Positions 7,753 to 26,332 of a stretch of 64,000 nt of DNA are shown one piece after another. Below the pieces are notes generated by a model that saw nothing but the letters and a program-made list of their open reading frames with translations, made no database searches and was not told the DNA's origin. Both the position numbers and the translations under genes were made by a program. The DNA is from Candidatus Fermentibacterota bacterium (GTDB taxonomy: Bacteria; Fermentibacterota; Fermentibacteria; Fermentibacterales; JCC-6). Position 1 is the stretch's first letter; each line of letters starts with the position of its first letter. The stretch lies in assembly GCA_963845085.1 (NCBI GenBank), contig CAWJQI010000004.1, positions 736,001 to 800,000 of the forward strand, written 5' to 3'.

Positions 7753-7972
7753 CACGCTTGAGCCTGTTGACGAATTCCTCAAAACCAACGACGGGTTCAG
7801 CTTGGCGATCGCGGAATGCTGCCAGATCATCGGCATCGGAGGCAAGCTCGTTGCGGATGGCATCGTTGACCATGTCGGATATGGAGTAGGAGGTTTCTGC
7901 CGATTTTATTCGCAATGCCTTGTGAAGTTCAGGCTCAAGGTAGACTGTGGCGCGTTTGGTCAGTTCAGTCAT
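7739..7972 (-). CDS. CopG/RHH antitoxin
   Basis: KRATVYLEPELHKALRIKSAET..SISDMVNDAIR; overlaps the toxin start. Confidence 0.8.
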   Translation of the reverse strand: MTELTKRATVYLEPELHKALRIKSAETSYSISDMVNDAIRNELASDADDLAAFRDRQAEPVVGFEEFVNRLKRDGRI

Positions 7973-8011
7973 GATTCGCCTCCTTTCCAGATCGTAAATA
8001 ACGCTGTAACG

Positions 8012-8404
8012 TCATAACGTCAAGATGACCGATGGACACAGGCGAGCATCGTGATTTGTTTCGTGATCGCAATGTGCGCAGAAGTAAGAAAGAACGGGCA
8101 AAGTCAAAATGGGACTGAAATCCATGGCACCGGCTTTCGCCCTCTCGATATCCCTCTGCTGCGTTCTTTTATCTCCACCGCACAGAAGCACCACCAGGAT
8201 CGAACCATGCAGGAAGTAGTAGACACGATACCCGGGGCCGCAGTCGATCCTCATCTCGAGAAGGCCTTCGCCGACCGGCTGAACATCACCGGGATTGCCG
8301 AGGCTCAATCTTCTGATCCTTATCAATATCCGAACTTTTGCCTCGGAGTCCCGCAACCTTTTCAACCAGCGGTCAAACGTCTCGCTCCTGATGATCTCGA
8401 CCAT
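8012..8404 (-). CDS. RelE/HigB-like addiction-module killer protein with aberrant C-terminus
   Basis: FDRWLKRLRD, GNPGDVQPVGEGL.EMRID.GPGYRVY, LLCGGDKRTQQRDIERAK. Confidence 0.8.
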   Translation of the reverse strand: MVEIIRSETFDRWLKRLRDSEAKVRILIRIRRLSLGNPGDVQPVGEGLLEMRIDCGPGYRVYYFLHGSILVVLLCGGDKRTQQRDIERAKAGAMDFSPILTLPVLSYFCAHCDHETNHDARLCPSVILTL

Positions 8405-8462: not shown

Positions 8463-8515
8463 ATGAACAGAAGCCGCCGGGGAACTTCCCGGCGGCCTCT
8501 ATCCCATCTGGCGGT
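8463..8515. repeat. Direct repeat copy 1 (diverged): tRNA-Asp terminator + tRNA 3' end
   Basis: atgaacagaagccgccggggaacttcccggcggcctctatcccatctggcggt; a few differences from copy 4. Confidence 0.9.
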
Positions 8516-8695
8516 TTGTGTTGAATGCTTGTCGGCGGTACAACCTCCGATGCCTTCACCTCTGCCCGAATCAGAACCTGTGTTCCTGAACCTGAAGGGT
8601 GTGCAGGGGACATCAAGGTGACATATGCATATTGACTTCCTATAAAGCATCACAAATGCTTTGCATGATAGTTTTTCAACCACAGGGGATCTGAA

Positions 8696-11068
8696 TTGAG
8701 CAGACATTGTCGGGTTATCCTTTATGTAATTGCATCCCATTGTTTTGCCCTGGGCGTTGGGGATGAGGTAACGTTGCTTGTTCCGGACATTTCCTATTTC
8801 CCCAATGATCCACAAGCCAGGCAATTCACATGCAGACTTGTGTCCGAACACGCTTATTGGCTTGTTCAGGATACAACATGGTTTGATCTTCCATCCGCTG
8901 AAGACGAGTTTCAGCTGATCTGGGGAAACATCGTCACCCAGGAGAGCATCGACAGCATTTCTTCCCGGTTTGAAGGTGCCGGAGTCAGTGTGTATGACAC
9001 GGTGACGGATGAACTCGGAGAGATCCAGGAGACTGGCAATGGCGATGACAGGCTCTGGATGGTGTTTTCTGATATACCCGACTACTATTTTGTTCCGGGC
9101 ACAGGGTACATCAGGTTGAGGAACTGGGTTTACACCTGGCCGGATGACTTCGACGGGGATTCGCAGACGGGAAACAACCACGACATAGTGTATGTGAATC
9201 TCAGCCCATATAAGAACCAAACCGGCGGCCAATGGAGCGAGGTGCGAGAAGACATTCATTCGTGGTCAACGGCCTCCGGCCTGGGTCAACTGATCAGGAT
9301 GGCGGCGAATCCGAATGAAGAAAAGTGGGTGGTTCGCGGCCTGGGTGCATACGCACAATATCTGTGCTTCGGGCTTACCTCAGCCCTGAACGGAGCGATA
9401 GGAATTGAAGGATACCTTGAGGACTTCGCGATGGCGGGAGGCGTTGAACTCACCTCCTGGTGGTCAGGGAAACCCGCGAAGGATTTCTCGGCGAACCTCG
9501 GCGGGGAACTGCTCTGGTTCCAGTACGTTCGGCAGAGATCCGGTCCCGACGCGGTTCGATGCATAGCCCAGTCGGAGCTGACTGGAATGGAGGCGGTCGC
9601 ACACGCAGTGGATCCCACGGTTCCCCTTGATGAAGCTGTCGAGACGGTTGCCTACCCGCTCTATGAAGAGTGGATAATCACCAACCTGATCTCCCCCTTT
9701 GCAGAAGACTATGCCCAGGGCATCTATCATTACAGCTTTCTCGATGGGACAGGGTATGATTTTTCGATCATCGATCGTCCGGCGTCTTTCATCGGGGAGT
9801 TCGATGAGTACCCGATACCAACCTGGATAGCTCCCTGGAGCTACGGCATGAGCGCACAGGAATTTGCTTCACAGTACATTGATTTCAGCGGGAGTTTCTC
9901 GGAACACCCAACGGTCCATTTCAACGGGATGTACAACCAGAACAACGGATCGGGAAGCAACATCGACGGCGTATGGAGCGTTTGGAAAGTCGTACTTGCT
10001 TCGGATTCAACAGTTCTTTCCATCGACTCGCTGCAGTTCGATGAGCTTTACAACGGCACCTTCCAACTCGAAGGCGCACGCACATTCCTGACGCTCACAT
10101 GCAACAACCCGGGCGGCACAGCCAATATCCGCTACACTTTCAGCCAGGACACGGCCCAGAAGAGCGTTTGGACCTCGTTCCAGCAGAACCCCATGCACCC
10201 CCTCATGTTCAGTGTTTACACCTCCCTTCTCCGGGAAGAAACAGGCATGCCCTACGGCTATGACTGGGTTGGTCCCAGAGTTGAGCTTTCACTTGTCAAT
10301 CAGCAGGGCATTCCTGACAGCACTGCCACGGTTCAGATGGAGCCCCATGCGGGAACACTCTGGTTCGGCAGAACAGAAGCGTGGAGCGCAGGCGAATACA
10401 GTCTTGTTTCAAGCGGTTTCGACAGTCTTGGAAGATTTCTGAGCGATACGCTTGCTTGCGCTGTTGCCTATTCGGTAACCGGCAATACAGTTCTCGAAGC
10501 GGGTTCTGCAGATTTTACGATTGCCGACGGTTCACTGCCTCCGGGATCGGTCGTCTCCCTTGCAGAAACATCATACCCGGCTTTCAGCTGCGAGCTTGAC
10601 CTCCTCTGCAGGCCGGTTTCCGTGAGTGCGGGCGAGGGTCTGCTTTCCTTTGAATCCGGGCATGGATGTGGAACAGTTTACAGGTACAACGAAGGCACCA
10701 TTCTGGAAATGGCCTCCTTTCGTGTGTCAAACTCGATCAGGGCTTTCATTGAGGAACCGGGGGTTTACCTGCTTGCCGATGGAAGCACACCTTCGGTTCC
10801 GGAGGTTCCCCCGACCCCACGATTGAACGCACCCTTTCCAAACCCATCGGAATCATCATTCACCATAGGCTTTTCCACTCCCGGCACCGAAATCGTAACT
10901 GTTGCAGTCTTCGACCTGTGTGGCAGGAGAGTGGCAACTCCTTTTCACGGCCGGGTTCAGGGAGGGGCATACTCAGTGAACTGCGGTGATGAGTTCCCAT
11001 CGGGGATCTATTTTGCCGTGCTCTCCGCCGGAAAACATTCGGAAATTCAACGAATGGTGAAGCTGTGA
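8696..11068 (+). CDS. Secreted metallopeptidase-like protein with T9SS-type C-terminal domain
   Basis: N-terminal hydrophobic signal; M30-like segment lacking HExxH; CTD PFPNP...VFDLCGRRV...SGIYF. Confidence 0.7.
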   Translation: MSRHCRVILYVIASHCFALGVGDEVTLLVPDISYFPNDPQARQFTCRLVSEHAYWLVQDTTWFDLPSAEDEFQLIWGNIVTQESIDSISSRFEGAGVSVYDTVTDELGEIQETGNGDDRLWMVFSDIPDYYFVPGTGYIRLRNWVYTWPDDFDGDSQTGNNHDIVYVNLSPYKNQTGGQWSEVREDIHSWSTASGLGQLIRMAANPNEEKWVVRGLGAYAQYLCFGLTSALNGAIGIEGYLEDFAMAGGVELTSWWSGKPAKDFSANLGGELLWFQYVRQRSGPDAVRCIAQSELTGMEAVAHAVDPTVPLDEAVETVAYPLYEEWIITNLISPFAEDYAQGIYHYSFLDGTGYDFSIIDRPASFIGEFDEYPIPTWIAPWSYGMSAQEFASQYIDFSGSFSEHPTVHFNGMYNQNNGSGSNIDGVWSVWKVVLASDSTVLSIDSLQFDELYNGTFQLEGARTFLTLTCNNPGGTANIRYTFSQDTAQKSVWTSFQQNPMHPLMFSVYTSLLREETGMPYGYDWVGPRVELSLVNQQGIPDSTATVQMEPHAGTLWFGRTEAWSAGEYSLVSSGFDSLGRFLSDTLACAVAYSVTGNTVLEAGSADFTIADGSLPPGSVVSLAETSYPAFSCELDLLCRPVSVSAGEGLLSFESGHGCGTVYRYNEGTILEMASFRVSNSIRAFIEEPGVYLLADGSTPSVPEVPPTPRLNAPFPNPSESSFTIGFSTPGTEIVTVAVFDLCGRRVATPFHGRVQGGAYSVNCGDEFPSGIYFAVLSAGKHSEIQRMVKL

Positions 11069-12114
11069 GAACACGTTCTGCCATTCCTGTACTTCTCGTA
11101 TCCTTGATATCCTGTATGAAACATCCCGCAGGGCTGCCTGATCCTATCGGTTACGATGGACTCATCGAAGCGGGATGGATGTCGTTGAAAGCCGCGGAGC
11201 ATTCGAACGCCCTTGATTACTTCAGGCAGGCGATGGAAGTTGATATTTCCCGGGCAGAGGGTTTTTTGGGCGCCGGCATAAGCACCATTTACATCGGGAG
11301 CTGGAGGGAAACGGGCAGGGGTTTCCTGCAGCAGGCGATTCAGATCGATCATGGAAGCTCTGCGGTCAACATTCACACCGGCAATGTCCTTTACCAGGAC
11401 ACTCTCTGGACTGTGATAGAGTGTATAGATCCCGACCTGCCTCTGGATTCCCTCAACACATGGCTTGCTTTCACTGCTGATTCAGGGCTTGTGTGGGTTG
11501 GCCAAACAATCAGGAGCTATTTGTTGAACAATGGTTGTTCAACCGATATCAGTTACAGGCTTCTACCGAAGGCAAACGCCTTTACAGCCTGCCTTGATCT
11601 CTACAATATGCAGAGCGGTGATTTCTATGCCGCTGACAGCATACGGGATGGCTGGATTCACTTCACCGTGCCCATGCACTCCACTTCACAGGGTTCTCAA
11701 ACCACATACTACCAGTGGGTGATGGCTGACGATGGAGTTCTTTACGACTTCGCCGAGATCGATCTGGAAGGGAATTACGATCAGACCAGTCTGGATGCCC
11801 TTGCGGGGAGGGTATGTCTGGAAGACGCCTTTGGAGACGAGGGAAGCCTGCTTCAGGCAACTGCGTGCGCACAGTGCCTGATTGAAGAAGCCCCGGATTA
11901 CAGGTTCGGAAAGGGAGACGAGTTGCTGGAGTCCGTCTTCAACCTGCAGCTTAGGCACGTGGTGGGATGCGCCGCATCCTTCGCTTTCAGCAACGGGAAG
12001 TTCTCCTACTGCTGGTTTCTCTGCAGACAGGTCGGGTATGGGGAAAACCTGGACCCGGAGTCGGAAACCTTTCTGATGGATCTGCTTCTTGTCCTTGCCG
12101 AGATGGTGCAGTAA
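11065..12114 (+). CDS. Lipoprotein with TPR-like N-terminal region
   Basis: Lipobox LISC; AGWMSL...ALDYFRQA...AEGFLGAG. Confidence 0.6.
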   Translation: MRTRSAIPVLLVSLISCMKHPAGLPDPIGYDGLIEAGWMSLKAAEHSNALDYFRQAMEVDISRAEGFLGAGISTIYIGSWRETGRGFLQQAIQIDHGSSAVNIHTGNVLYQDTLWTVIECIDPDLPLDSLNTWLAFTADSGLVWVGQTIRSYLLNNGCSTDISYRLLPKANAFTACLDLYNMQSGDFYAADSIRDGWIHFTVPMHSTSQGSQTTYYQWVMADDGVLYDFAEIDLEGNYDQTSLDALAGRVCLEDAFGDEGSLLQATACAQCLIEEAPDYRFGKGDELLESVFNLQLRHVVGCAASFAFSNGKFSYCWFLCRQVGYGENLDPESETFLMDLLLVLAEMVQ

Positions 12115-14324
12115 TGACTTCGGGTGCAATCGCGCTGTCTGCCGTCGCCTTCCTTGGAACCTTTGAGCAAACATACAAGTACATGCCTGCCAATCTTTTC
12201 ATGGACTCCTTTGACGGAAGGCCGTTGATTACTTCTACCGTTCACAATTTGTCCAACCTCTGGGTACGCTTTTCAAACATAGGCCTTGTGGGAACGATGA
12301 CCTCAGACCTGACAATGGAATGGCCCGGAGGATCAGGATCCGATTACCTCTGGTACGGTGCACTCTGGGCAAGTGCCTTCGGAGAGATAACCCCTGCAAT
12401 GCTGCCCATGCCCTGCGTAAGCAGAGTCGATCTGGGAAGCTCGGAGGATGACCTTCGACCTTCCGAGAATCACCCCATGGTTAAAACGATCAATGGCGCT
12501 GTTGCCCACGAGCAGACGGCGTGGGCTCAGGATGACTGGGCTGCTGTCAATCCCAATCCCATGGGAGTTATGATTCTGGAGGAAGGCTACAGTTGGCGAA
12601 CACCGGGCTATAACAACTTCTACGCAAACCATATCAGAGTGGTTCACCAAAGCCAGTACGGCAACCCCGGAATACCACTGACCGGATTCTGCTTGTCGGT
12701 GCTGGCAGACTGCGACATCGCCACTGCTGATCCGTACGACCAGTTCTACAGCGACGACATGATCTTTTACGATGGTCACGCTATCTGGTGCAACGACCCT
12801 GATGCTTCCTTCGATTACATTTTTGACGACGGTGACAAGGCAAGTGAGTCCGACGAGTACATCTGGCAAAGAAACCCTGATGCATTCTGGGCTGACCCTG
12901 AAGACGACATCTACTACCATTACAATTACCCGGGAAGCGACGGCATCGTTGACGCCGATGTGAATTCCGACGGAGTATCGGATCACTTCACTGTTCTCTT
13001 CAAGGTATGCGGGGCCGATACCGTCTTCAGAACCGAACAGAACACCGGAATGGTTCTGTTCGCGAACGGCATGCCGGAGTTATTCTGGAAGCACACTGTA
13101 GGTGATACGGTTTACGCGGTTGTTCCAAGGAACATGAGCTACATGTGGGACGGTGACAGGCCACAATCCTACACCGACGACACGGGAGAACCAACCTGTC
13201 TGCCTCCCTGCAACGGTTTCATCGGATGGCGATTCATCGATCTGTGGGTGGTTAAGGCAGACGGAACCGTTGAGAGACCAGTTGACGTTATGGGATGCCC
13301 GGTCCCCCTTTCTCACAGCTGGTGGAACTTGATGAACGATGCCTGCTCAAGCGACACCCTGGGGTATGAAGTTGTCTGGGGGCTCAACATGGACTACAGC
13401 GGAAGAACAAGCGGCCCCGCATATCTGGCGGAATGGATCGGAGATCCCTGCACGCCGCAGGCATTTCAGCCTCAGAACCCGGGCCCTTTTCCTGTCGTGC
13501 ATGACAATCCTCTCGCTTTGGGCTACCTTCCATTTGATTACGGGTTTCTGATTTCAATGGGTCCGGTTGACCTTGCCGACGGCGACACACTGCATGTGGT
13601 GGGTGGCTGGGTGATGGGCAGGGGGCTGGATGAGTTGAGACTGAACGCCGACATCCTTCTGGATGCCTACTACAGGGATGGCGGCTGGGGAGTACCGGAT
13701 GTTCCGCCGGTGCCGTCGCTGTACTATGACGGGGCATCTGGCGTCGTGGAACTGCAGTGGAGTGACGAAACAGAGTGGTACGAACCCTTTGGAGGATACC
13801 GGCTTTATCGCTCTGTTTTCAACACCGGGGACTGGACCCTTCTCGAGGACTTTGAACGCGGGGAGTATTCGTATACAGACAGCACAGTAGTCAGAGGTTT
13901 TCCCTATTTCTACAGCCTCTGCGTTTACGATGAACTGACCGGGATAGAGAGCAGCAGAACCAACTTCAAGCAGGAACTCGATGGCACTCCCATCCCCGTG
14001 GTCCCCGGCTGGGCGGCGGACCCCCTGTGGAAGGAAAACACAAGGGTCGTTCCCAACCCCTATCAAATCAGCGCAGCATGGGAAGAGGAATACCAGAACA
14101 AGATCGCTTTCACCAACCTCCCGCCGATGTGCGACATTCGGATCTACACGCTGGCGGGAGCTCATGTGAGAACCCTTGAGCACAGGAGCTACGGAAGCGA
14201 GTGTGGGGTCGAGTACTGGGACCTTACGAATGACAGTGGGCGGTCGATCTCAACCGGGTTGTACGTATATGCCGTTCAGACGGAGAACGACCATTTCATC
14301 GGCAAGTTCGCGGTGGTGAGGTAA
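12114..14324 (+). CDS. Large secreted protein with FN3-like and FlgD/T9SS-like C-terminal domains
   Basis: EWPGGSG..YL; VELQWS...GYRLYRS...YTDSTV; VVPNPY...IRIYTLAG...WDL...GLYVY; ATG overlaps the upstream TAA. Confidence 0.7.
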   Translation: MTSGAIALSAVAFLGTFEQTYKYMPANLFMDSFDGRPLITSTVHNLSNLWVRFSNIGLVGTMTSDLTMEWPGGSGSDYLWYGALWASAFGEITPAMLPMPCVSRVDLGSSEDDLRPSENHPMVKTINGAVAHEQTAWAQDDWAAVNPNPMGVMILEEGYSWRTPGYNNFYANHIRVVHQSQYGNPGIPLTGFCLSVLADCDIATADPYDQFYSDDMIFYDGHAIWCNDPDASFDYIFDDGDKASESDEYIWQRNPDAFWADPEDDIYYHYNYPGSDGIVDADVNSDGVSDHFTVLFKVCGADTVFRTEQNTGMVLFANGMPELFWKHTVGDTVYAVVPRNMSYMWDGDRPQSYTDDTGEPTCLPPCNGFIGWRFIDLWVVKADGTVERPVDVMGCPVPLSHSWWNLMNDACSSDTLGYEVVWGLNMDYSGRTSGPAYLAEWIGDPCTPQAFQPQNPGPFPVVHDNPLALGYLPFDYGFLISMGPVDLADGDTLHVVGGWVMGRGLDELRLNADILLDAYYRDGGWGVPDVPPVPSLYYDGASGVVELQWSDETEWYEPFGGYRLYRSVFNTGDWTLLEDFERGEYSYTDSTVVRGFPYFYSLCVYDELTGIESSRTNFKQELDGTPIPVVPGWAADPLWKENTRVVPNPYQISAAWEEEYQNKIAFTNLPPMCDIRIYTLAGAHVRTLEHRSYGSECGVEYWDLTNDSGRSISTGLYVYAVQTENDHFIGKFAVVR

Positions 14325-15341
14325 ATGAAAAGGGTGTACCTCCTTGCCTTAATTGTCCAGGCAACCGGATGCATTGATGATCCCGTGACCAATACAATCC
14401 CTGGCGAATACGAGCAGGAGTACCAGTTGATCTGGAACCTCTTTGACGGTAACTATGTGGGATTCGCGGTCAGTGGGTTCAACTGGAACGCGGTGTACGA
14501 TACATACCTTCAGCAAAGCAGGCAGGTACAATCCAGGGAGGAGATGACGGAGCTTACCCTTTCGCTGCTCGCCGGCCTTCAGGACCGTCATGTCTGTCTT
14601 GTCGATCCGGGTGGAAACACAATGCCTTCCTGGCAACCCGATCTCTTCATCAACTGCAGTGAAGAGGTTCTGATGAACTACCTCGAACCCTGGGGATTTC
14701 AATGGACGCAGGAGGATGTGTGGGGATACTGCCAGGCGGGAACCGATTCAGTACCTTACTTCGTTCTGAAATCTCTGCATCCGGAATTGAATCTGAGCCT
14801 TTTTGACAACATTCTTCTTCCGCTGATCGATGAACCCGTTCTCATCTTTGATGCAAGGCTTTGCAGTGAAGGAGCTGACGGAACCGCCTCAAACCTTGTC
14901 AGAAGGTTTGCCGACATTGAAAGAACGGTACACATGACCAGGCACAGGGTCAGCGGGTCTTCCTGGGAACTCGCCGAGCCGCAGCCGGTCTATGTGATCC
15001 CCAGGGGATGGCATTACCAGGGGCAGGTGATTCTTCTCACCGGGGAAGGCAATACAGGCTCCTCTGAGGTCTTCATCTGCGACATGGCAGAGTTTCCACA
15101 TGTGACAACAGTTGGAGACACCACCGGAGGTTCCGGAAACTGGCAGACCGAAGCATGGCTGCTTCCCGACGGGTGGCATATCGTTTGTCCGGTCGTTACA
15201 CTCGCAAGAGCGGATTCATCTCTTGTCGAGGGAACCGGGGTGTTCCCGGATCACCTCGTTGAAGCAACTGAAGCCGATTTCCAGTCCGGATACGATCCGG
15301 TTCTGGAGTACGCTCTCGACATTGCTAAAGCTCCGAGGTGA
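14325..15341 (+). CDS. S41-family peptidase-like lipoprotein
   Basis: Lipobox ATGC; LQDRHV, VGDTTGG, LPDGW, EGTGVFPD, DPVLEYAL. Confidence 0.75.
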   Translation: MKRVYLLALIVQATGCIDDPVTNTIPGEYEQEYQLIWNLFDGNYVGFAVSGFNWNAVYDTYLQQSRQVQSREEMTELTLSLLAGLQDRHVCLVDPGGNTMPSWQPDLFINCSEEVLMNYLEPWGFQWTQEDVWGYCQAGTDSVPYFVLKSLHPELNLSLFDNILLPLIDEPVLIFDARLCSEGADGTASNLVRRFADIERTVHMTRHRVSGSSWELAEPQPVYVIPRGWHYQGQVILLTGEGNTGSSEVFICDMAEFPHVTTVGDTTGGSGNWQTEAWLLPDGWHIVCPVVTLARADSSLVEGTGVFPDHLVEATEADFQSGYDPVLEYALDIAKAPR

Positions 15342-16320
15342 GCGCCAGTAAAAACTCACCATTCGCATGGGTAGTGATGTCCCATGGAAAACCCTGAACA
15401 GTAACCAGATATTCTACATCTCCGGTCAGGTAATTCACGGAAACCAGCCTGCTCTCACCGCCGCCAAGGTAACTCAGTACATAGAACTTTGTTGTGCCGG
15501 GCACGCTGCAAATCTTCATGGGGTGCCCGTCCAGCTCGAAGCGATCGACCTCGGGAGGGATGAAATTCCTGCACACGGACACCAGACCGTTTTCAGCCTC
15601 CCACTCGGGATGGGTTACGGCCCATATGGATTCTGCAGGAAAGGCTGCAATGTCCATGCACGGATAACCCAGGCTGGTTGTGCTGAAATGAAAAGTAGCA
15701 AGCGAGATCATGGCAACCGATCCCGCTTCGTCCTGAAACGCAGCGAGCAGGTATTCATTCAGATACGTTTCAGCAGCAAGCGCCGAGGGACAGCCGCTCA
15801 TGGCCTGGGTAGTCCGAAGAACCGTGTTGGTGGCTGTGCTGATCTCCCTTACCCTGCAATCGCTTCCGTCGGCCAGGAAGAAGGTTTCCTGTGACGATGG
15901 ATTGGGGTAGAGAATTGAGGGCGCTGCTCCGGCTTCAAAGTCATCGGCAACCGTGTTCTCTTCAAGGTCTATTTCCAGCAGGTTGCCGGTTGCTCCGGTC
16001 AGGTAGATCGAACCGGCAACGGGATGTATCATGGAGCGGTAACCGGCACCACCGGCGAACCCCACGGTAAAGGAAGTATCCACGGTCATCTCCACTGAGT
16101 TTATTCTGAAAACATCGCCTGTGCCAGTGGATACAAGGAATTCAGTGCTTCCGATGGAACAGATGGCCCGTCCGTCGGGGATGCCTTCAAGAACTCCCAC
16201 CACGGAGTTGTCGGATACTCTCAACTTGATGACCCCAGAGTCCGTCATTGAAGAAAACTCTTCCGGATTGTAACACGAAAGGGCAAGCAGGCAGGCACAA
16301 TACAGCGGGTACTTCTTCAA
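15325..16320 (-). CDS. YncE-like beta-propeller lipoprotein
   Basis: TTG start 1 nt after the receptor stop; lipobox ALSC; repeated beta-blade patterns. Confidence 0.6.
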   Translation of the reverse strand: MKKYPLYCACLLALSCYNPEEFSSMTDSGVIKLRVSDNSVVGVLEGIPDGRAICSIGSTEFLVSTGTGDVFRINSVEMTVDTSFTVGFAGGAGYRSMIHPVAGSIYLTGATGNLLEIDLEENTVADDFEAGAAPSILYPNPSSQETFFLADGSDCRVREISTATNTVLRTTQAMSGCPSALAAETYLNEYLLAAFQDEAGSVAMISLATFHFSTTSLGYPCMDIAAFPAESIWAVTHPEWEAENGLVSVCRNFIPPEVDRFELDGHPMKICSVPGTTKFYVLSYLGGGESRLVSVNYLTGDVEYLVTVQGFPWDITTHANGEFLLALTSEL

Positions 16321-16321
16321 A

Positions 16322-18994
16322 CTACCACTCCACTCCAACACCAGCGTAGATGTGTCGGGCTGATGACCATGCCGCCGGATTCTGCGATAGCCCCCCGGGC
16401 TCCCCGGTGGTTTCATAGATGAACGGGTCATAAATGCGCTCGACATTCAATCTGTCGAACAGGTTGAACACGGTCATCCTGCACTCCAACATCACCTCAC
16501 CGAGGGGAATGCTTCGTGTCAGCATGAGGTCGGTCGACATGGTCCAGGGTTGCCGCGCTGTGTTTATTTCGGGGAAATCTCCCTCCGACGAGGGGCTGTA
16601 GGGATAACCGCTTCCGTACTGCCATCTCACGCCGATCCCGGCTCTCTCCAAAAAATGCCGGCCGGCAATCTCGGGGCCCTCGCCCTCCTCGAAGCTTGTG
16701 TTGGCCAGCGCGCTGATCAGATGCCTCTGATCCCAGTCGAGGTAGTTGTCATCTTCGGGTATCGTGGAGTAACCGGCCGAAGAGTATACGTACTGCTCAG
16801 TGGCCGAAGAGTACCGCCCCTCTGCAATCGAGTAGGTGTAGCTGATATTGCCGGACACGATTTCTCCCGGAAGCCTCATGAATGTAGCCTCGACTCCCTG
16901 CACGGTGGCATAACTGTCATCGTTTTCGTACATGAAGAAGGTTCCCTGCCCCTCTCCCGAAAGCGGGGACGACTGCACAAGTCCCGTGATCTCCTTGTAG
17001 AACGCCGAAAGTGAAAAGTTTGACAGCTCGCCTGTTCTGTGCCTTATGCCGGCCTCGTATGAAAGCGTTCTGACAGCGTCCAGATCCGGGTTACCCACAA
17101 TGGTGTAGTCTCCGCCCAGGTTGTAACTGGTTCCACTGAACAGCTTGTCCAGGGAAGGCATCTGGAAGTACCTGCCGTAAGTCACAAAAAACACATCCCT
17201 TTCCGATATGGGATGGTTCATCCCGAAACGCGGACTGATCTGAACCTTGACGGGCACTTCCTGCGCACCGGCCTCGCCTGGAATCGTCATCGTTGTGTTC
17301 GGGTCGAAGAGATCGGCACGAATTCCCGTTGTAAGGACCATTGCACCCGAGAAGTTTGCCGATGACTGCACGAAGGCGGAAGCCGCTCTTGGTTCGGCCT
17401 GCCAGATGTTCACCCAAATCTGAGAAGGCGAGTTAACCGCTACATTATAGTTGTAAATATCGTAGTACTTGCCCTCAACACCGGACACAAGTTTGAACAC
17501 ATCGTTCAACTGGTTGGTCATCTCCAGCCTGCCGGCAAAAACCGAGCTTCTGGAATCCATCCATACGGAGGAGTGGATCCCGTTGTGAAAAAAGCCCATC
17601 GAATCTGCTACCCTGTCCTCGAAGAACTCACCGTACCAGGCCGAAGGAGTCAGGTTCTCGCCCAGGTATCCGCCGCTCCCGTCCCTGATCCGGCTCCACG
17701 CGGAGAACTCGCTTCTCTCAAATGCCCCTTCAACAACTGTGTTCTGGCCAATCATCCTGTTCAGCCCAAGTGTTACACCCCAACTCTCGTCAAAACTCAC
17801 GGGAAGAACGTTGTCAGTGTTTCCACCCAGGTATGGAACACCCTCCACATACACGGGCTGATCGTACTTTGACCAGACCCACTCGTCCCATCCGCGCTGC
17901 CTGAAGGAGTACCTGCCAAGTATGCTGAAGCCCAGAAGGGGGTTGGGTCTGCCCGTGATGTTCAACACACCGGACAGGTTGTTCTGCCAGTTGTTGTCCC
18001 AGTTGCCCCTGCTGTCCTTCAGGTCGTATCCGCTTCTGGAATACTCCGCTGCCCCGAAGAAGAAAACTTCACCGGGGATCCGAATTCCGAAAGAGGGAAG
18101 AAGCAGCGAAGTGACCGGCTCAGGCCCGCCAAAAGAAGCGGCCCCCTGAATACCGTTACTCAGAAAACTGCCGTTTTCTGCACCGGAGGATAAACCGTCT
18201 TCGGAGGATTCGGTACCAAATGCAGTAACATCACCGCCATTTATGGCAAGATCCCCCGAATACTCGTCCCCTCCCTCCCGGGTAACCATTTTGACAACAC
18301 CGGACAGGGCATTGCCATATTCGGCTCCGAATCCTCCCGTAATGGTCGATGCCTCGGCTACAGCCGACAGAGGGATTGTAGCGGAGTATCTGCCCGTAAC
18401 AGGAGATCGCATGGAGGAACCGTCCAGAAGGAATTCCACCTCTCCGGACCTTCCTCCCCTGACATGAATTTCTCCATTTTGCGTACTGACCCCCGCCTGC
18501 CCCTGGATTACATCGATCATTCCGGTGACGGGCATGGTTTCAATCTGGTGCCTGTCGACCACGTAAATTGTTGAGGGAACAGTCTCAAGAATGTCACTTC
18601 TTTGTCCGGTAACAGTGATCACGGTGTTTCCTGCGGCTTCCGCCCCCAGTGTGATGTCGAGCACCGTATTCTGATCCGAAACAACAACGACGCCTTCAAC
18701 TGTAACGGAGGCCATCCCGACCATTCTGGCAACAACGGAGTATTGCCCGGGAGACAGCCTGGGTATGTAGTAGTAACCATCCGCATCGGACATTGAGCCT
18801 GATTGTGTCCCGACGATCAGGACAGACGCTCCAACGACCGGAGCACCCGATGAATCAGTGATTTCCCCGGTAAGCGCACCTGTTCCAAAACCGAATGCAA
18901 CGAATGGAAACGCGAGCAGAACTGCAATGCAAAGCAGACTGCATCTGCAGGAAGCAATTCCTTTCATCCGAACAGTCCCGGCATGTTTTTCCAC
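16322..18994 (-). CDS. TonB-dependent receptor with carboxypeptidase-regulatory-like N-domain
   Basis: G.ITDSSG.P..GASV, plug HVRGGRSGEV..LLDG, SPRFG, GNPDL, terminal W. Confidence 0.9.
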   Translation of the reverse strand: MEKHAGTVRMKGIASCRCSLLCIAVLLAFPFVAFGFGTGALTGEITDSSGAPVVGASVLIVGTQSGSMSDADGYYYIPRLSPGQYSVVARMVGMASVTVEGVVVVSDQNTVLDITLGAEAAGNTVITVTGQRSDILETVPSTIYVVDRHQIETMPVTGMIDVIQGQAGVSTQNGEIHVRGGRSGEVEFLLDGSSMRSPVTGRYSATIPLSAVAEASTITGGFGAEYGNALSGVVKMVTREGGDEYSGDLAINGGDVTAFGTESSEDGLSSGAENGSFLSNGIQGAASFGGPEPVTSLLLPSFGIRIPGEVFFFGAAEYSRSGYDLKDSRGNWDNNWQNNLSGVLNITGRPNPLLGFSILGRYSFRQRGWDEWVWSKYDQPVYVEGVPYLGGNTDNVLPVSFDESWGVTLGLNRMIGQNTVVEGAFERSEFSAWSRIRDGSGGYLGENLTPSAWYGEFFEDRVADSMGFFHNGIHSSVWMDSRSSVFAGRLEMTNQLNDVFKLVSGVEGKYYDIYNYNVAVNSPSQIWVNIWQAEPRAASAFVQSSANFSGAMVLTTGIRADLFDPNTTMTIPGEAGAQEVPVKVQISPRFGMNHPISERDVFFVTYGRYFQMPSLDKLFSGTSYNLGGDYTIVGNPDLDAVRTLSYEAGIRHRTGELSNFSLSAFYKEITGLVQSSPLSGEGQGTFFMYENDDSYATVQGVEATFMRLPGEIVSGNISYTYSIAEGRYSSATEQYVYSSAGYSTIPEDDNYLDWDQRHLISALANTSFEEGEGPEIAGRHFLERAGIGVRWQYGSGYPYSPSSEGDFPEINTARQPWTMSTDLMLTRSIPLGEVMLECRMTVFNLFDRLNVERIYDPFIYETTGEPGGLSQNPAAWSSARHIYAGVGVEW

Positions 18995-19172
18995 CTGCCT
19001 GAAAGCTACGAATGGATTTCGATCATGCGTAATTTACTCTTACAATCATCCACCGCAATACCTGCGAATTCCCGCTTTCGACGCGATTAAACCAGCAACC
19101 CGGGCACGCATCGATCGTGTCTTCTTGCTGCTGATCACTCTTCATAGCAGAATGAGTTTTGCTCAAGCAGGA

Positions 19173-19226
19173 ATGAAAAAGCCGCCGGGGACTCTCCCGG
19201 CGGCCTCTATCCCATCTGGCGGTCCG
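19173..19226. repeat. Direct repeat copy 2
   Basis: 54/54 identical to 26212-26265. Confidence 0.95.
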
Positions 19227-19401
19227 CAGTGGACACGTTTCGAACTCAAGCTTACTGAGATGTTTCCGACATCACAATTCGTAAAGTGTGTTCATGGTAT
19301 GGCGCCGAAGTATACTCTAAATGCAGAAACAACCAGGAAGTCAGATGTCAATCTGTCAGATGACATCCTGTTTTGCCCCTGGTCCGCTAATCCAGATCCG
19401 A

Positions 19402-20961
19402 CTACCTTACCAGAACCACCCTTGCTGATGCATCAATTCCATCACAGCAGAACCGAAAGAAGTAGACTCCCGAAGCAAGCTGCGAGCCCTGGGAATTGCA
19501 GCCATCCCAAAGCCAGGTAAACTGGCCTGCGGGATTGGATCCAAGTTCCTGTGATCTTACAAGGTGGCCGAAGATATCGTAAACCTCAAGAGTCACCTGT
19601 GACAGACCGGGGGATTGAAAGGAAATGGTTGCGCTGGATGTCATGGGATTAGGCAGAATGCTGAGTTCTTGGAAACCGTTCGGCAGTGGCGCCTCGTCAG
19701 GTGCGTCGACCTCCAGCTCATCGACCCACTTGGCGAAGTAAAGCGACACAATCCCATCTGCCAGAAAGAAGTGGTTTCCAACAGTGGTGAATACACCGCC
19801 CACATAGACATCTGGACCATCTGCCACAATTGCCCGTACAAACTGGCTCACGCCGCAGTCAAGATCCGACCAGGAGTCGCCATCCCAACGGGCGATGCGG
19901 TATGCTGGAACTCCCCCTGCAGTGGTGAAGAAGCCCCCCGCATACACATCGGTGCCGCTCACTTCAATGGAAAAGACTTTGTTGTTCACGCCATCTCCCA
20001 GTGCCGACCAGGAGTTGCCATCCCACCTGGCGATGTGGTTTGCGGAAACTCCGCCAGCTTGATGAAATTCCCCACCGGCGTAAATGTCCGATCCGTTCAC
20101 CGCGATGGCAAGGACCCTCATGTCTACACCACTTCCCAGTGCTGACCAGGAGCTGCCATCCCACCTGGCGATGTGGTTTGCGGAAACTCCGCCAGCTTGA
20201 TGAAATTCCCCACCGGCGTAAATGTCCGATCCGTTCACCGCGATGGCATGGACCCAATCGTCTACACCACTGCCCAAGGCCGACCAGGAAGTACCGTCCC
20301 AAAGGGCAATACAGTGCACAACAACGCCGCCCGCTTGCTCGAAGGATCCTCCCGCATACACATCCGAACCATTCACTGCAATGGTGGTCACAACGTAGCT
20401 GGTGCCACCACCAACACTCGACCAGGAGCTGCCATCCCACCTGGCGATGTGGTTCGCGCTAACCCCACCAGCTTGGTGGAACCAGCCTCCCGCATATACA
20501 TTCGAACCGCACACCGCGATGGCTGTGACATAATTGTCAATGCCACTTCCCAGTGCCGACCAGGAGATGCCATCCCACTTGGCGATGTTGCTTGCAGGCA
20601 TTCCACCCGCTTGTGTGAAGTATCCTCCCACAAACACATCCGAACCACTCACAGCTATCGCAAACAATTCGCCGTTCATACCCTGCCCCCCCGGAGGGTA
20701 ACCAAACCCGTCATACCAGTAACCCGTCGCGCTCTCTTGAAGTAATGGAATAGCATCAATTGTTTCTGATTCATCACCCACGAATACGGGTTCCCCTTCG
20801 GGTCCATAAGTCATGCGAAAACCAAAAGGACTGACACTGCCCGACAAACCGTCAATGAGAGTACCGTCAGGGGCAAGTACAGCAGCAAGTGAAGGATTCG
20901 AGTCGGCCGACGCCAAGGAAACAAGTATCAGAAGCGCGATCCAGAAAAAGAATGCCTTCAT
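19402..20961 (-). CDS. Secreted beta-propeller protein (46-aa repeats) with T9SS/FlgD-like CTD
   Basis: Signal peptide; ~7 repeats VYAGG.F..AGG..A..IA.WDG..WS.LG.G; CTD ILPNP...WDG...ASGVYF. Confidence 0.85.
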   Translation of the reverse strand: MKAFFFWIALLILVSLASADSNPSLAAVLAPDGTLIDGLSGSVSPFGFRMTYGPEGEPVFVGDESETIDAIPLLQESATGYWYDGFGYPPGGQGMNGELFAIAVSGSDVFVGGYFTQAGGMPASNIAKWDGISWSALGSGIDNYVTAIAVCGSNVYAGGWFHQAGGVSANHIARWDGSSWSSVGGGTSYVVTTIAVNGSDVYAGGSFEQAGGVVVHCIALWDGTSWSALGSGVDDWVHAIAVNGSDIYAGGEFHQAGGVSANHIARWDGSSWSALGSGVDMRVLAIAVNGSDIYAGGEFHQAGGVSANHIARWDGNSWSALGDGVNNKVFSIEVSGTDVYAGGFFTTAGGVPAYRIARWDGDSWSDLDCGVSQFVRAIVADGPDVYVGGVFTTVGNHFFLADGIVSLYFAKWVDELEVDAPDEAPLPNGFQELSILPNPMTSSATISFQSPGLSQVTLEVYDIFGHLVRSQELGSNPAGQFTWLWDGCNSQGSQLASGVYFFRFCCDGIDASARVVLVR

Positions 20962-21160
20962 GATCCCTCCTGATCCGACTAAAACGATTCAGATACCAGT
21001 ACCTGCTACTGCCAGAGACTAATCATCACAATAGCAAATCTAAACGGATAGTCAAGGAACGTCGTGGTTCTGACAGAATCACTACTAGCATTGGCAGATA
21101 GCAGTTAATTGCCTATGAGTACCTTTGAGTGGGTCTTGCCATATTTCTTGCATCGAATAC

Positions 21161-21212
21161 AAAAAAGCCGCCGGGGACTCTCCCGGCGGCCTCTATCCCA
21201 TCTGGCGGTCCG
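21161..21212. repeat. Direct repeat copy 3
   Basis: aaaaaagccgccggggactctcccggcggcctctatcccatctggcggtccg. Confidence 0.95.
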
Positions 21213-21415
21213 TGTTGGACGCTTTTCGAACGTATTCACAGCAACCATGTGACTTAGACGGCTTCATCGACGTACAGGTTTGTGTCACAGAGAACGAGCA
21301 TGACTCATCAGCACCCGTTTGTGTCATGCCATCTCTTGACAACTGAATCGCAAAGTATGTAACTTTACTTAGCAGGTTTATTCTCTCAAAGCATTGCCCT
21401 GAAGGGAGTGTTGTC

Positions 21416-24330
21416 GTGTCGAATCCTTCCCCTCACAGACTTGGTATTATCATCCTTAACGTGCTGATCCTGCTCACTCAGTCCCTTTTTGCAGCGGAAC
21501 CAGGGGAGAACACAATTCCCATCATCGGCATGCGGACATCCAACAACGAGTTCTTTTCGGGAATTGGGCTTCGCCTTCTCTGCGAGCTATCCTGGAAGCA
21601 CTTCGACGGCGTTGAGGTGGAGGGGCCGGTGGTTCCTTGGCCTATTGGTGAAAACTGGCAGATGAACCGCGATTTCATAGATCTCTGCGGTGACGCAGGC
21701 ATGCTTCTTGTTCTGGCCCCCTGGGAGGTTTGCCAGTTCTACAACTCTTGGAGCGACAGCACTGCTTACTGGTGCAGGTGGACCGAGGGTTCCACCCCAA
21801 TAACATCAGACAGTTGCTTCGTCAGAATTGCACCGAGATTTTAATTCAATGAACGGGATCAGGTCTGCAATGGTCATGGCAGATACCAGCGAAGTTTATT
21901 CCATTGCCGGTGTGAACAACCAGTTGGCGAGCACTGTGGATACTCTGTCCGCCCTGTGGTGCTACAACGTATACGACGAGGCTCCAGCGCGGCAGCGTAC
22001 CAGAATGATAGAAGGTTCCACGACGTGGGACGATTGGATCCCGAACCTCTTCACACAGGACACACTGAGCAACGGTGATCCTACCCTGACCGAGATAGAA
22101 CCCGCGGGCATCTACTCATGGCAGAAGCATCTTGCCGAGAACAACACCTACCGGGATGTTCCACTCACCATCAACTTCTCACTGCTGCACACCATCAATC
22201 CAGGCGAGTACACAGGCTTCAGCGGCATCAGCGGCGGCACCATGCACCAACAGGCCAATTCGGTCAGAGCGTTGTGCGGAGCATTGTTTCAGGGGCCTCC
22301 GTCCGGCGGAATTACACCGGCCCCTGTCGACAACTCCCCCGGGTTCATCTGCTTCGACTACTACCCGTTCCGTTACGTGGACATGGATTCCGTTGGAACA
22401 ACCCTCTGCGACGACGGCTGGCTCTTCCTTGTTGACCACTGCGAGGAGGGGATGGACTCAACGGTGTTCGCTGCGAGGGAGAGCGGGACCCCTGTGTTCT
22501 TCTACCCCCAGGCCTTCGGAGCTTCCGGAGGACCGCAGCTCCTGGACAGTCAGGGCAATCTGGACTACCATTCCTACAACTACCGCACTCCCGCTCCGCA
22601 GGAGTTCAGGATGCTGTGTCACCTGGCACTGCTACACCAGGCCAAAGGGCTGTTCCCGTACTCGCTGGCAAGCTACATATCGGACCCCGGTGATCCAGCC
22701 GATTCGGACAACTTCATCTGCAACTCGCTTCTCGATCTTCACGGCATACCCTTCGATGCCCCCTACGAGGAGTGGGTGTACACCGGAAGATGGCCGGATA
22801 CGGGTGGCTGGGAAGACGGGTACGAGTACGCCGACCCCGGGGAGCTTCCCCCTTCAGCGCGGGATTCGACCCTCTCTACGAGGTATCGGCAGCACCGGTT
22901 CCAGTGCAGGATGACCCGAAGAACACCGAGAGGTTTCTGACATGGTTCTTCGAGCCCTACTCGAGGCTTTACGACGGCGTTGAGGTTCCCCTTGCAGAAG
23001 CTGCCGTGATTGCACCCGAGATGTCGAACCTCTGGTGGTGGGACGGTTCCCAGGACGTTGCAGTGATGGTCCCCGTACATGACCCCGCGATTTACGACAA
23101 CTACGTTCCCCCCGTGATAAAGGTGTTCCTGGGGCCTGACAGCAGCCACGTCTACATCTACTGCGTGAACCGTTACCTCCGGGATGCCGAGACGGATTAC
23201 ACCGTCTCGATCGTTAAATCCCTGAGTCCCGGCTTTGTATCCGCGACGGTTCTTGACCACAGCAGGCGTTTTCTGATACCGGCTCCGCCGGGGGGCGGGG
23301 CCAACAATGTGTTCTATGCATTCACCGACACTCTGGAAGCCGGTGAGGGCAGGCTGCTGGAGTTTGTCGACTCAAGCATTCCGGCAGACCTCCGGGTGAC
23401 ATCACCGGACGTGTACGCAATCAGGGAAGGCTCTCTGGAGAGGACGAACCGGCTGGTCTGCACAGCGGGTGAAACACTGACCCTCGGAGCCGTGTACTAC
23501 AACATGGGTACTGCAGCCACCGGTAACATCGCAGTTGATCTTCTAAAAGGAGGGTACGCCGTTATATACTGGGCACCGACACAATACGTCTTGGCGGGCT
23601 GTCGGGGTGCTACAGCCCCGACAGCGTGTCTGCGGAGATAGATTGGGAGACCGACATAGACGATGTGGGCGTTCACAGGATAGAGATAAGCGCTGGAAGC
23701 GTGTCAGGTGAGAACACTTCCGACAACTCCGTCACCGTAGCCGTTCTGGTGGAGCCTGCGGACTACTCGTCAGAGGTTCTCGGGAACGCCTGGGACATGA
23801 CGGAGGCGTTGAGCAGCCCGCCGGTCTGGTACACGTCGGACATCGAATCGGTCTCTTCGGGCTGGGACTCCACGGCCTGGACCGATTCCATCAGCGGCAT
23901 GTTCGAGGGGGAACTGAGTGTTCCCGCCCCCGGGCAGCTCTTTGCGGGCGACATCCTTCTCAGTGAAGACAGCGATGAGCCCTTAGACGCGGACGAGTAC
24001 ACGATGCTGAGCCTTGCCGGGGTGTGCATGAATCCCAACATGACTGGCAGCAGTTTCGGTTGCGGCATGTTCCTGTTCTGGAGGGATTCCACGGAAACGG
24101 GGCACATACTTGAGCTTCACGGGAGCAACGGCTTCGGTCGTGGGCTTGGCAACGGCCGTGAGATGTGGAGAGAGTTCGGACCTTTGGACCTGAGCGGAGT
24201 CTCCGGCTGGAACGGCGAGGTTCACGATGTGGGGATAAGGTTCCAGATGGATCCGCCGGGCCAGGGCGTCGTACCCGCTCCCCTGTCCATACGGCTGGGC
24301 TGGATACAGCTGGAGAGGGGGGCGTTGTGA
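21416..24330 (+). CDS. Large secreted protein with CARDB-like domain, split by about three frameshifts
   Basis: Signal peptide in 21416 ORF; overlapping protein-like ORFs 21828, 22772, 23626; YYNMGT...WET...G.H.IEI..DNS. Confidence 0.55.
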
Positions 24331-26186
24331 AGGCTCTTGTTCTGCTGCCCTGCTTTCTGTTGCCGGCGTTTCTCTACTCGGGTGAGTCCATTCAGACCAA
24401 CTGGTCTTCAGGTCCTGGAGTAACCGGTCCCGTCACCGATTGGAGCGACTCCTTCGACCTCCACCAGTACATGGACTACGAGGGCACGACGGGAGAGCTG
24501 TACCTGAATCTGAGGGGCGATAAGTATCAGGTTGCCGACCTGGGGGGATATATATGTCCGGGAGTGGTGGCTGACATCAACGGTGATGGTCATCTGGACA
24601 TAGTCTGTGGAACCCAGGGGCTCGGTTACAATTTCAACAAGGCCTACTGGTTCGAGAACGATGGTGCAGGCGGAGGCTGGGAAAGGCATGCGATAAGCAA
24701 TTCAGGGGAGACTTTTATACTTCGATCCGTCTGCGCCGTGGATGTTGACAATGATGGTGACCTGGACGTGGTCGGAGGCGAGGGATCCACTAACTACGAC
24801 AGAAAAATCTATCTCTGGACCAATACCGACGGAACGGGGTTGAACTGGGAGACGAGCATCATCGATGACAATCTTCTCACGGCTCCGATTCGAGTCATAC
24901 CCACGGACATTGATGGAGACGGGAACCAGGACATTCTTGTTCAGAGAGCTGGACCGGATGGGCATCTCGTATGGTATGAGAATCCTGAATCTGTCAGGTT
25001 GGAACCCTTTGATGGATGGACAGAGCACTTCATCGGCTACAAGAGCCCTCAGGACCTTTGTGCCGCAGACATCAACGGCGATGGTTGGATGGATGTGGTC
25101 AGTGCAGCGAACAACAGTCAACCCGGGTACAAGAAGATTTCTTTCTGGGAGAACTTGGACGGAACCGGAGACAATTGGGTGGAGAACTCCATATGCAGCA
25201 GCACTCTTTGGGAGCCATACGCAGTCTGCGCGGCCGATGTCGACAATGATGGAGATCTGGATGTAACTGCCGCTGATTGGACCGAGTGGGTTTCTTGGTT
25301 CGAAAACACTGACGGAACCGGTCACTCATGGGTTGAGAGGCAGGTTGACAATCCTGTTGTATCCGGAACTTCGATAGTGGTGTTCGATGTGGACCTTGAT
25401 GGAGATGCCGACATAGTCGGGGCCTTTCCAACCCAATGTATGGCAGTATGGGAAAACATTGATGGCGCAGGCGGCAACTGGAGAAGGCATTTCGTTGAGT
25501 ATGGTCCCAATTACGTCGGGCTTTCAGTCGGGGACATTGATGGAGACGATACGCTGGATGTGGTGGGGTACGTTGATTCGGGAAGCAACATATCCTGGTA
25601 TCGTCTTGGCTACCCCTCCACTGGAACACTGACCTCCTCGATACTGGACGTGAACAATTACCCCCACTGGCAGGAAGTTCAGTGGCAGGACAGCGTTCCT
25701 GCCGGTTCTTCCCTGAGGTTCCGCGTTCGGAGTTCCAACGATCCCGAAGACATGGGGAGCTGGTCGGGTTACATTGAGGAGCCAGGGAGCCTGTCGGGGT
25801 ATGTTGACAGCACCCACCGTTACCTCCAGTACCGGGTTCACATGGAACCGGCCGGCCGGTTCGTTACCCCCACTCTCTATCAGGTGCTGTTCTACTGGGA
25901 GTGGCTTGGAGTGGAGGGGGCTGAAGGAGTGACACGTCTTCACCCCGTCACCCCCAATCCAAGTTCAGGTCCTGTGGAGATACGGTTCAATCTTGCGGAG
26001 CCGGGTCCCGTTGCGCTTCAGGTGTTCGACCTATGCGGCCGTTTGGTCGCCTTGCCGGTGGACGGCGAGGTGTCGGGCGGTGAACACTCGGTTCAGCTTG
26101 CTTCCATTCCTCCGGGAGCATACTTCGTCAGGATGACGACGGGAGAAGAAGTACTAAGGGAGCGCTTTGTTCTGGTGAGTAACTGA
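24327..26186 (+). CDS. FG-GAP/VCBS-repeat protein with T9SS CTD
   Basis: GTG start overlapping the upstream TGA; repeated D.D.DGD.D and W.EN.DG.G..W; CTD TPNP...VFDLCGR...GAYF. Confidence 0.88.
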   Translation: MKALVLLPCFLLPAFLYSGESIQTNWSSGPGVTGPVTDWSDSFDLHQYMDYEGTTGELYLNLRGDKYQVADLGGYICPGVVADINGDGHLDIVCGTQGLGYNFNKAYWFENDGAGGGWERHAISNSGETFILRSVCAVDVDNDGDLDVVGGEGSTNYDRKIYLWTNTDGTGLNWETSIIDDNLLTAPIRVIPTDIDGDGNQDILVQRAGPDGHLVWYENPESVRLEPFDGWTEHFIGYKSPQDLCAADINGDGWMDVVSAANNSQPGYKKISFWENLDGTGDNWVENSICSSTLWEPYAVCAADVDNDGDLDVTAADWTEWVSWFENTDGTGHSWVERQVDNPVVSGTSIVVFDVDLDGDADIVGAFPTQCMAVWENIDGAGGNWRRHFVEYGPNYVGLSVGDIDGDDTLDVVGYVDSGSNISWYRLGYPSTGTLTSSILDVNNYPHWQEVQWQDSVPAGSSLRFRVRSSNDPEDMGSWSGYIEEPGSLSGYVDSTHRYLQYRVHMEPAGRFVTPTLYQVLFYWEWLGVEGAEGVTRLHPVTPNPSSGPVEIRFNLAEPGPVALQVFDLCGRLVALPVDGEVSGGEHSVQLASIPPGAYFVRMTTGEEVLRERFVLVSN

Positions 26187-26211
26187 TCCTGTTTGTCCGC
26201 TGTCGAACCGC

Positions 26212-26265
26212 ATGAAAAAGCCGCCGGGGACTCTCCCGGCGGCCTCTATCCCATCTGGCGGTCCG
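26212..26265. repeat. Direct repeat copy 4 (native tRNA-Asp 3' end + terminator)
   Basis: Includes the last 10 nt of tRNA-Asp (CGGACCGCCA on minus). Confidence 0.95.
26215..26243 (-). terminator. Rho-independent terminator of tRNA-Asp
   Basis: GCCGCCGGG-AGAGTC-CCCGGCGGC stem followed by TTTTT on minus. Confidence 0.8.
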
Positions 26266-26332
26266 GACGAGACTCGAACTCGCAACTTCCGGCGTGACAG
26301 GCCGGTGCTCTAACCGATTGAACTACCGGACC
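26256..26332 (-). tRNA. tRNA-Asp(GTC)
   Basis: Cloverleaf: acceptor GGTCCGG/CCGGACC, anticodon arm CCGGC-CTGTCAC-GCCGG, GTTCGAG, encoded CCA. Confidence 0.97.

Follow-up and report, generated by a model that had tools for sequence, protein, structure and literature searches.

A tRNA-Asp cassette array in a Candidatus Fermentibacterota genome probably derived from stacked serine-integrase islands

We analyzed a 64,000-nt stretch of DNA (the window; contig CAWJQI010000004.1, positions 736,001 to 800,000, or G000:C4:736001-800000) from a Candidatus Fermentibacterota bacterium, whose genome (G000) is represented by a 2.45 Mb assembly that is 88% complete. The window contains an array of gene blocks, or cassettes, separated by direct repeats behind the tRNA-Asp(GTC) gene. 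These repeats are very probably junctions between the tip of tRNA-Asp and the two ends of islands integrated by a serine integrase. The blocks are likely to be such islands, which lost their integrase gene except for its last 14 codons and were stacked by the integrase of a visiting or since-lost intact element.

Repeat junctions and the end of an integrase gene

The four direct repeats carrying the tRNA tip, reported in a first-pass annotation of the sequence, are present (Table 1), with successive copies 10708, 1986 and 5053 nt apart. As that annotation also held, copies 2 and 4 are identical over 54 nt (from 19173 and 26212) and the most distal copy is the most decayed: the identical stretch is 51 nt for copies 3 and 4, and just 29 nt for copy 1. 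The repeat unit had been described as the tRNA tip followed by the terminator of the tRNA. The tip was confirmed; the supposed native terminator is instead the end of an integrase gene, and non-tRNA copies have a longer unit, with a conserved arm of ~20 nt past the 10-nt tip. The core that is invariant across the junctions corresponds to the last 6 nt of the tRNA.

Genome-wide, we counted 7 full copies of the repeat, each fused to a tRNA tip, in two clusters and none elsewhere. The second cluster lies outside this locus, at G000:C1:1-8520, and comprises three further full copies and a fourth truncated where the contig ends. As no tRNA was called nearby, it represents either a displaced array or a misjoin. 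This region (G000:C1:1-8700, L004) holds a duplicated block of BrnT/BrnA and addiction-module genes, the copies of which are 97% identical, as well as a C25 peptidase-family gene, and it borders an IS3 element and a defence-rich island of ~50 kb.

The arm that follows the core on one side, P', was assigned to the end of a gene for a large serine recombinase (LSR). In the same-genus contigs L021, L023 and L024, the 3' half of this gene is found at tRNA-Asp, antisense to the tRNA and reading into it, while its 5' half has been replaced by insertion sequence (IS) elements. The first 41 nt past the core in cassettes A, B and C are the gene end that abuts tRNA-Asp in these contigs, and the sequences diverge after a T-run. 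The last 27 residues of the product, P0123, correspond to copy 4 translated antisense. The 90% cluster of P0123 includes a full-length protein, P0272 (523 aa), with Resolvase, Recombinase and Zn-ribbon domains. P0126, P0130 and an LSR of G030 also read into tRNA-Asp, and P0125, a C-terminal LSR piece, runs through the same P' arm into the tail of the far arm. A profile built in part from the repeats' tails retrieved P0123, P0125, P0126 and P0130 from 1.84 billion proteins. Since the hairpin in the P' arm is letter for letter the 3' end of the LSR gene, we ruled out that it is a duplicated native terminator of the tRNA.

Another profile, free of repeat sequence, was derived from 12 intact LSRs that target other tRNAs, using the 15 residues that precede their junction Trp. 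Applied to 76,310 Trp positions of G000, it placed copies 2, 3 and 4 at ranks 1-3, with copy 4 at rank 3. Two of the C1 copies ranked 5 and 6, the decayed copy 1 ranked 115, and a C1 copy with a one-base deletion ranked 613. Many LSR genes in this order read antisense into tRNA 3' ends. None of the 59 loci examined in a PF07508 search of 70 genomes gave a match adjacent to tRNA-Asp, the G030 copy having surfaced in a later protein search. The best 120 LSR homologues included no tRNA-Asp tail and one tail of the attP form. In viral contigs, two patterns found no match; six LSR relatives were present, three of which were read to the C-terminus, with no tRNA-Asp ending among them.

The far arm, P, resembles an attachment (att) site of a serine integrase. 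Together with the core, it reads W-R-x-x-x-D-x-F-R-T on the opposite strand, in 15 distinct variants that come from two families and show much third-position change. The pattern was found in 8 of the 70 genomes of the order and never with a reversed control. From the T-loop motif to the CCA we measured 24 nt in the tRNA and 29 nt in all five intact non-tRNA Asp copies measured, a 5-bp shift that recurs in the repeats of tRNA-Arg(CCT) and tRNA-Arg(ACG) of G000 (2 of 2). In serine integrases, the motif of the zinc-ribbon domain (ZD) is displaced outward by 5 bp in attP relative to attB (Rutherford et al., PMC3783163; this and the other papers cited by PMC number are drawn on in part). The repeats share this feature, in the left half of the site only. 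The shift and the domain composition of the cognate enzyme are those of the LI/A118, Bxb1 and phiC31 integrases; unlike in their sites, no symmetric shifted motif was identified here on the P' side (PMC3783163). A remnant of a helix-turn-helix tail behind the P arm was seen in 1 of 19 Asp arms.

Because P' is the integrase end, and the P arm combines the 5-bp-shifted T-loop motif with the attP-form tail, we interpret the blocks as integrase-deleted islands cut to their att arms. Read from the sequence, copies 1-3 show the order P-core-P', a rejoined attP that spells the tail of the free-form integrase and the layout of repeated insertion at one site, and copy 4, in which the P' arm meets tRNA-Asp, shows the B-core-P' order of a host-element hybrid junction.

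Table 1 Features of the tRNA-Asp array in window coordinates
Feature	Position	Strand	Remarks
tRNA-Asp(GTC)	26256..26332	-	sole tRNA-Asp called in the genome; shared core formed by its last 10 nt; host (B) half-site on its T-loop side
Repeat copy 1	8468..8537	+	decayed junction; P arm without T-loop-like motif
Repeat copy 2	19173..19245 (unit from 19176)	+	P' arm, core 19217-19226, P arm (second variant); attP-like junction
Repeat copy 3	21162..21231	+	P' arm 21162-21202, core 21203-21212, P arm 21213-21231; attP-like; spells the integrase's attP-form tail
Repeat copy 4	26215..26284	+	P' arm 26215-26255, the last 14 codons of the serine-integrase gene toward the tRNA; hairpin and T-run on the tRNA strand
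Cassette A (~5.0 kb)	21213..26255		frameshifted ~975-aa exported-protein gene and FG-GAP/T9SS-tail gene; same start after tRNA-Asp in G004
~975-aa gene, no known family	21368..24330 (start approximate)	+	four pieces, three frameshifts
FG-GAP repeat protein with T9SS-type C-terminal domain	24327..26186	+	
Cassette B (~2.0 kb)	19227..21202		single gene; one contig (run X5) lacks it, the break lying exactly at the repeat
DUF5122-type beta-propeller repeat protein with FlgD/T9SS-type tail	19402..20961	-	
Cassette C (~10.7 kb)	8516..19216		six genes, two convergent groups
Toxin-antitoxin genes (RelE/ParE-type), distal to copy 1	7495..8404	-	same block after a repeat in G002 and G007
Two-component pair and TrkA/TrkA/TrkH block	1995..7194	+	repeat-free ends here; repeats on both sides in G007

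A hairpin within the last integrase codons

On the tRNA strand, the P' arm forms a hairpin followed by a T-run, and it does so within intact integrase genes too. In five such genes of the clade, the hairpin reached z values of -4.6 to -6.6, and just 2 of the 15 other LSR loci folded gave an equally strong one. Over 12 sequences, half of its pairs (6/12) are changed on both sides, which exceeds all slid controls (relatedness not removed). Among the 94 relatives whose junction could be read, 50 conserve a K-A-A-G motif that matches the 3' arm of the hairpin and the T-run. Cassettes A, B and C retain integrase sequence exactly up to the end of the T-run. The hairpin pattern is confined to genus g1 (6 of the 60 genomes of the family). 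A simple terminator scan listed copy 3 alone, with overall counts at chance level. The integrase gene end likely doubles as the tRNA-Asp terminator, and the P' arm may have been retained both as a recombination half-site and as a terminator of the tRNA. In a literature search with little coverage of subscription journals, we found no case of integrase codons serving as the terminator of the target tRNA.

Hairpins of the integrase type also occur without a repeat-bounded cassette, behind tRNA-Asp, tRNA-Ser(CGA) and tRNA-Arg(CCT), in G003 (L008), G006 (L014), G001 (L109) and G002 (L012, L106). They are possibly domesticated terminators.

Growth of the stack and competing accounts

The integrase gene lies on the strand opposite the tRNA and extends across its own attachment site, so each inserted element sets the 3' end of that gene (P') against the tRNA CCA, with the element's remaining end (P) on the distal side. 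When another element then inserts at the tRNA, P-core-P' is left between the neighbours. The islands would then have been cut back to their att arms, with the integrase gene deleted save its end. Either the integrase would still target the tRNA site once it is occupied (B-P'), or accretion with co-excised neighbours would enlarge the stack, and trimmed cassettes may move with or by a helper element. Homologous recombination between the 51-54-nt repeats would also delete or duplicate blocks. The newest cassette appears to be the one at the tRNA, as the first-pass annotation had proposed; we favour this order given the decay of copy 1 and an integrase remnant on the tRNA-proximal element of G007, the junction structure alone giving none.

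Relatives differ at this locus. In G003, a backbone gene directly follows tRNA-Asp; the same gene is separated from the tRNA by ~31 kb in G000 and by 21 kb in G005. Two repeats are found in G005, behind other genes. In G007 and near-identical metagenome contigs, four repeats bound an 11-kb block, the Trk block, a DUF5122 gene and an RCC1 gene, followed by toxin-antitoxin genes; the Trk block is thus a bounded cassette there and unbounded here. Cassette content differs in G005, G007 and G002, and no cassette is present in G003. Starting at a junction, the BrnT/BrnA blocks of G000, G005 and G003 share 96-97% identity, against 70-75% in their flanks. In the window, the variable region continues beyond copy 1 through toxin-antitoxin genes and the Trk potassium-uptake block to ~4.6 kb left of the window. 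These comparisons bear out the earlier view of non-autonomous cassettes with att-type duplications, varying between relatives, whose recombinase lies outside the array; neither integrase nor transposase families were found among 30 open reading frames (ORFs) scanned from the first 35 kb of the window. Finally, one contig of sequencing run X5 joins 19191 to 21182, so that cassette B is missing exactly at the repeat.

Several observations weigh against serial insertion by a serine integrase. G000 (88% complete) yielded no full-length LSR, which implies that the enzyme would come from a helper: the recombinase beside the repeat that the first pass had suggested looking for exists in relatives, as the LSR reading into tRNA-Asp, and is not resident here. 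Moreover, the sole tRNA-Asp LSR copy seen in the genus is the one that lost its 5' half to IS elements, and the tRNA-Asp integrase of G030 lacks the hairpin, so terminator coding is not universal. Retrieval of matching LSR tails was favoured by a search profile that held the repeats' own tails. Canonical serine integrases do not recombine attP with attL, and those of LI/A118, Bxb1 and phiC31 do not take attL as an integration target without a recombination directionality factor (RDF) (PMC3783163); serial use of the tRNA site would therefore need relaxed directionality or an RDF. The X5 joint is represented by one contig at a depth of 3.6 and would fit a RecA-type deletion equally well. No circular or go-back junction was found in the four runs examined (of 10 that hold part of the stretch, none of which spans it). 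P' arms are closer within a genome (mean of 4.7 differences, 42 pairs) than between genomes (7.4, 189 pairs), suggesting some local duplication or conversion in addition. A 324-aa tyrosine recombinase is also encoded on the tRNA-proximal element of G007. Given the likeness of P' arms within genomes and the tandem duplication of whole blocks in G005 (84%) and G000:C1 (97%), homologous recombination has acted too.

Part of this evidence would be expected if the array were a relic, that is, if the islands had inserted with their own integrases, were trimmed later and now change by homologous recombination and ordinary gene transfer, with no site-specific movement. We give this account a substantial but minor share of the probability. 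The missing resident integrase, the decay of copy 1, the likeness of repeats within a genome and the tandem blocks of G005 and C1 all speak for it, and McMurdie et al. consider it possible that islands without an integrase have become fixed (PMC3146451). A relic, however, would not readily explain why the P arms keep their coding pattern and 5-bp spacing through 15 variants and two families, nor why a trimmed toxin-antitoxin cassette is 96-97% identical across species from the junction on.

Integrons employ the tyrosine recombinase IntI together with attI and attC sites. The first-pass annotation had called the array integron-like, with a recombinase acting in trans; in that case the enzyme would be a tyrosine recombinase and the hairpin an attC-like single-strand site or the native tRNA terminator. 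Small blocks and toxin-antitoxin pairs between hairpin repeats fit this idea, and the genome holds three tyrosine recombinases. However, the RYYYAAC/GTTRRRY pair occurs at none of the four junctions, and none of the three recombinases passes the integron-integrase cut-off TIGR02249 (best 115.6 of 265 bits; genome 88% complete). The hairpin is serine-integrase coding sequence, genes run in both orientations, and the one clear tyrosine integrase owns an attL/attR pair at tmRNA. We consider the integron-like mechanism highly improbable and retain the tandem stack of serine-integrase islands in its place.

As candidates for the enzyme, we rejected the tyrosine recombinases of G000 (one XerD-like, one a 278-aa protein below every cut-off, and the tmRNA-bound integrase with its own att pair) and two short resolvase-type serine recombinases (225 and 231 aa), which lack the Zn-ribbon domain. 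The tmRNA element itself spans 23 kb (G000:C5:310466-333785, L016 in part). Its tyrosine integrase has 500 aa and a C-terminus that likewise extends into the RNA gene, and the element holds pieces similar to tRNA-Asp cassettes of G005.

That the repeat is a REP-like element or common terminator recurring by chance is likewise highly improbable: similar hairpins do follow tRNA-Ser(CGA) and tRNA-Arg(CCT) in G001 and G002, which is explained by sister integrases that target other tRNAs and carry the same hairpin, whereas the genome-wide dispersal expected of such an element is contradicted by the two clusters of tip-fused copies and by the restriction of the hairpin to genus g1.

Cargo, related loci and known systems

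Cassette C combines two gene groups, the first comprising a T9SS-tail protein, a lipoprotein, a large exported protein and an S41 peptidase, and the second a TonB-dependent receptor and a lipoprotein. All nine cargo genes of the window, counting the split gene as one, begin with a hydrophobic stretch on a crude hydrophobicity scale; three have T9SS-type C-terminal domains above the cut-off and one is a TonB-dependent receptor. The first-pass view of the cargo as surface proteins thus agrees with the exported appearance of the nine window genes and does not extend to relatives, which carry the Trk block, toxin-antitoxin pairs and an AAA ATPase. The view that blocks hold whole genes only does not stand: the four ORFs of cassette A at 21416-24330 form a single ~975-aa gene with three frameshifts, as relative P0277 aligns over all four pieces with changing frames. 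Other strains show indels near two of the frame switches; the frameshifts reflect either assembly errors or a pseudogene. Similarly, the histidine kinase at 1995-3933 is split into two ORFs here but forms a single gene (614 aa) in G007, which again hints at indel errors or decay in this assembly.

Several cargo sequences recur elsewhere. In genomes of another genus and family, the S41 peptidase/lipoprotein/TonB-receptor trio (window 14325-18967; L033; L105) is likewise found downstream of tRNA-Asp, at a distance of 6-30 kb; paralogues of the trio lie at G000:C1:71571-78486. Partial copies of the right half of cassette A (79-94%) are located at G000:C5:842251-844455 and C4:427543-429716; both begin at the equivalent of window position 24005 and are fragmented and far from any tRNA. 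Upstream of tRNA-Asp, two similar short genes occupy 26572-27535.

The serine-integrase system works at several tRNAs of G000. Repeats behind tRNA-Arg(CCT) and tRNA-Arg(ACG) are found at G000:C4:112043, C4:110647 and C4:881920, the two measured being those with the 5-bp shift. Remnants matching the end of a tRNA-Asn-targeting LSR (L101) lie at G000:C5:720, C5:2874 and C1:45948, tRNA-Asn itself not being called in the assembly. A motif of ~28 nt with a G-run/C-run palindrome opens many cassettes, behind tRNA-Glu(CTC), tRNA-Glu(TTC) and tRNA-Arg(ACG) in G000 and at Asp junctions in G005 and G007. At 37749-41560 of the window, tRNA-Ser(CGA) is followed by a ~1.9-kb tandem duplication of a region with a PQQ-type beta-propeller gene (94% over 563 nt), in which the first copy is apparently broken and the second lacks the tRNA tip. 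In the complete genome G027 (L046), several tRNA-tip repeats follow tRNA-Asp with long structured spacers and two P arms, forming a denser stack with other P' ends.

Among known systems, the array resembles the ssrA islands of Dehalococcoides, tandem islands behind a single-copy RNA gene with short direct repeats of its 3' end, of which 15 of 31 lack an integration module and were considered possible cis-mobilisable elements (McMurdie et al. 2011, PMC3146451). Their integrase DsiB (~540 aa) always overlaps the att site at its 3' end, just as the cognate LSR reads into tRNA-Asp, of which the window keeps the last codons only. The present array differs in its tRNA-Asp target, in element ends cut to ~41 and ~29 nt, in the terminator-like hairpin of the integrase end and in its cargo of exported proteins, transport and toxin-antitoxin genes; families of the Dehalococcoides six-gene module (dsiB, dsiA, recF-like, parB, mom and an RNAP-domain gene) are absent from it (PMC3146451).

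Cassettes A and B, which hold no integration or transfer genes and keep both att ends, correspond to the definition of a CIME, and cassette C has a decayed far end (PMC5704250). Conjugation genes were not noticed in the array, in the course of an analysis that included no dedicated search for them. The CIME examples in that source involve tyrosine integrases and conjugative helpers; here, the chimeric site is at the same time a rejoined integrase gene end. Additive flexible genomic islands likewise show cassettes at tRNA 3' ends, partial tRNA repeats and variation among close relatives; no recombinase is named in the parts of those papers drawn on (PMC5217437, PMC7771536), whereas the enzyme family and both half-sites are identified here.

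The outcome resembles that of integrons, a stack of small non-autonomous gene packets, including toxin-antitoxin pairs, with the newest probably at one end; it differs in having neither attC nor IntI, in multi-gene cassettes in both orientations and in what would be a double-stranded serine chemistry.

The array itself is of a known kind, to which this analysis adds the cognate integrase, both half-sites and a likely double use of integrase codons. An anonymous repeat array has thereby become a defined recombination system with its enzyme (P0272), host site, element site and hybrid sites. Specialists may be drawn to integrase codons acting as a tRNA terminator, and to the question of how tandem stacks arise through a serine integrase once the target site has ceased to be an attB; the literature search described above yielded no explanation for such stacking. 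More tentatively, and in our view with the odds against it, one widely distributed family of tRNA-targeting serine integrases might encode the terminator of the tRNA in its C-terminal codons and re-use the occupied site, leaving enzyme-free cassettes with arms of 41 and 29 nt that stay live. If so, the textbook attP x attB rule would be broken, and visiting integrases would load, excise and reorder cassettes at several tRNAs, a serine counterpart of the integron that would shuffle exported proteins in Fermentibacterota.

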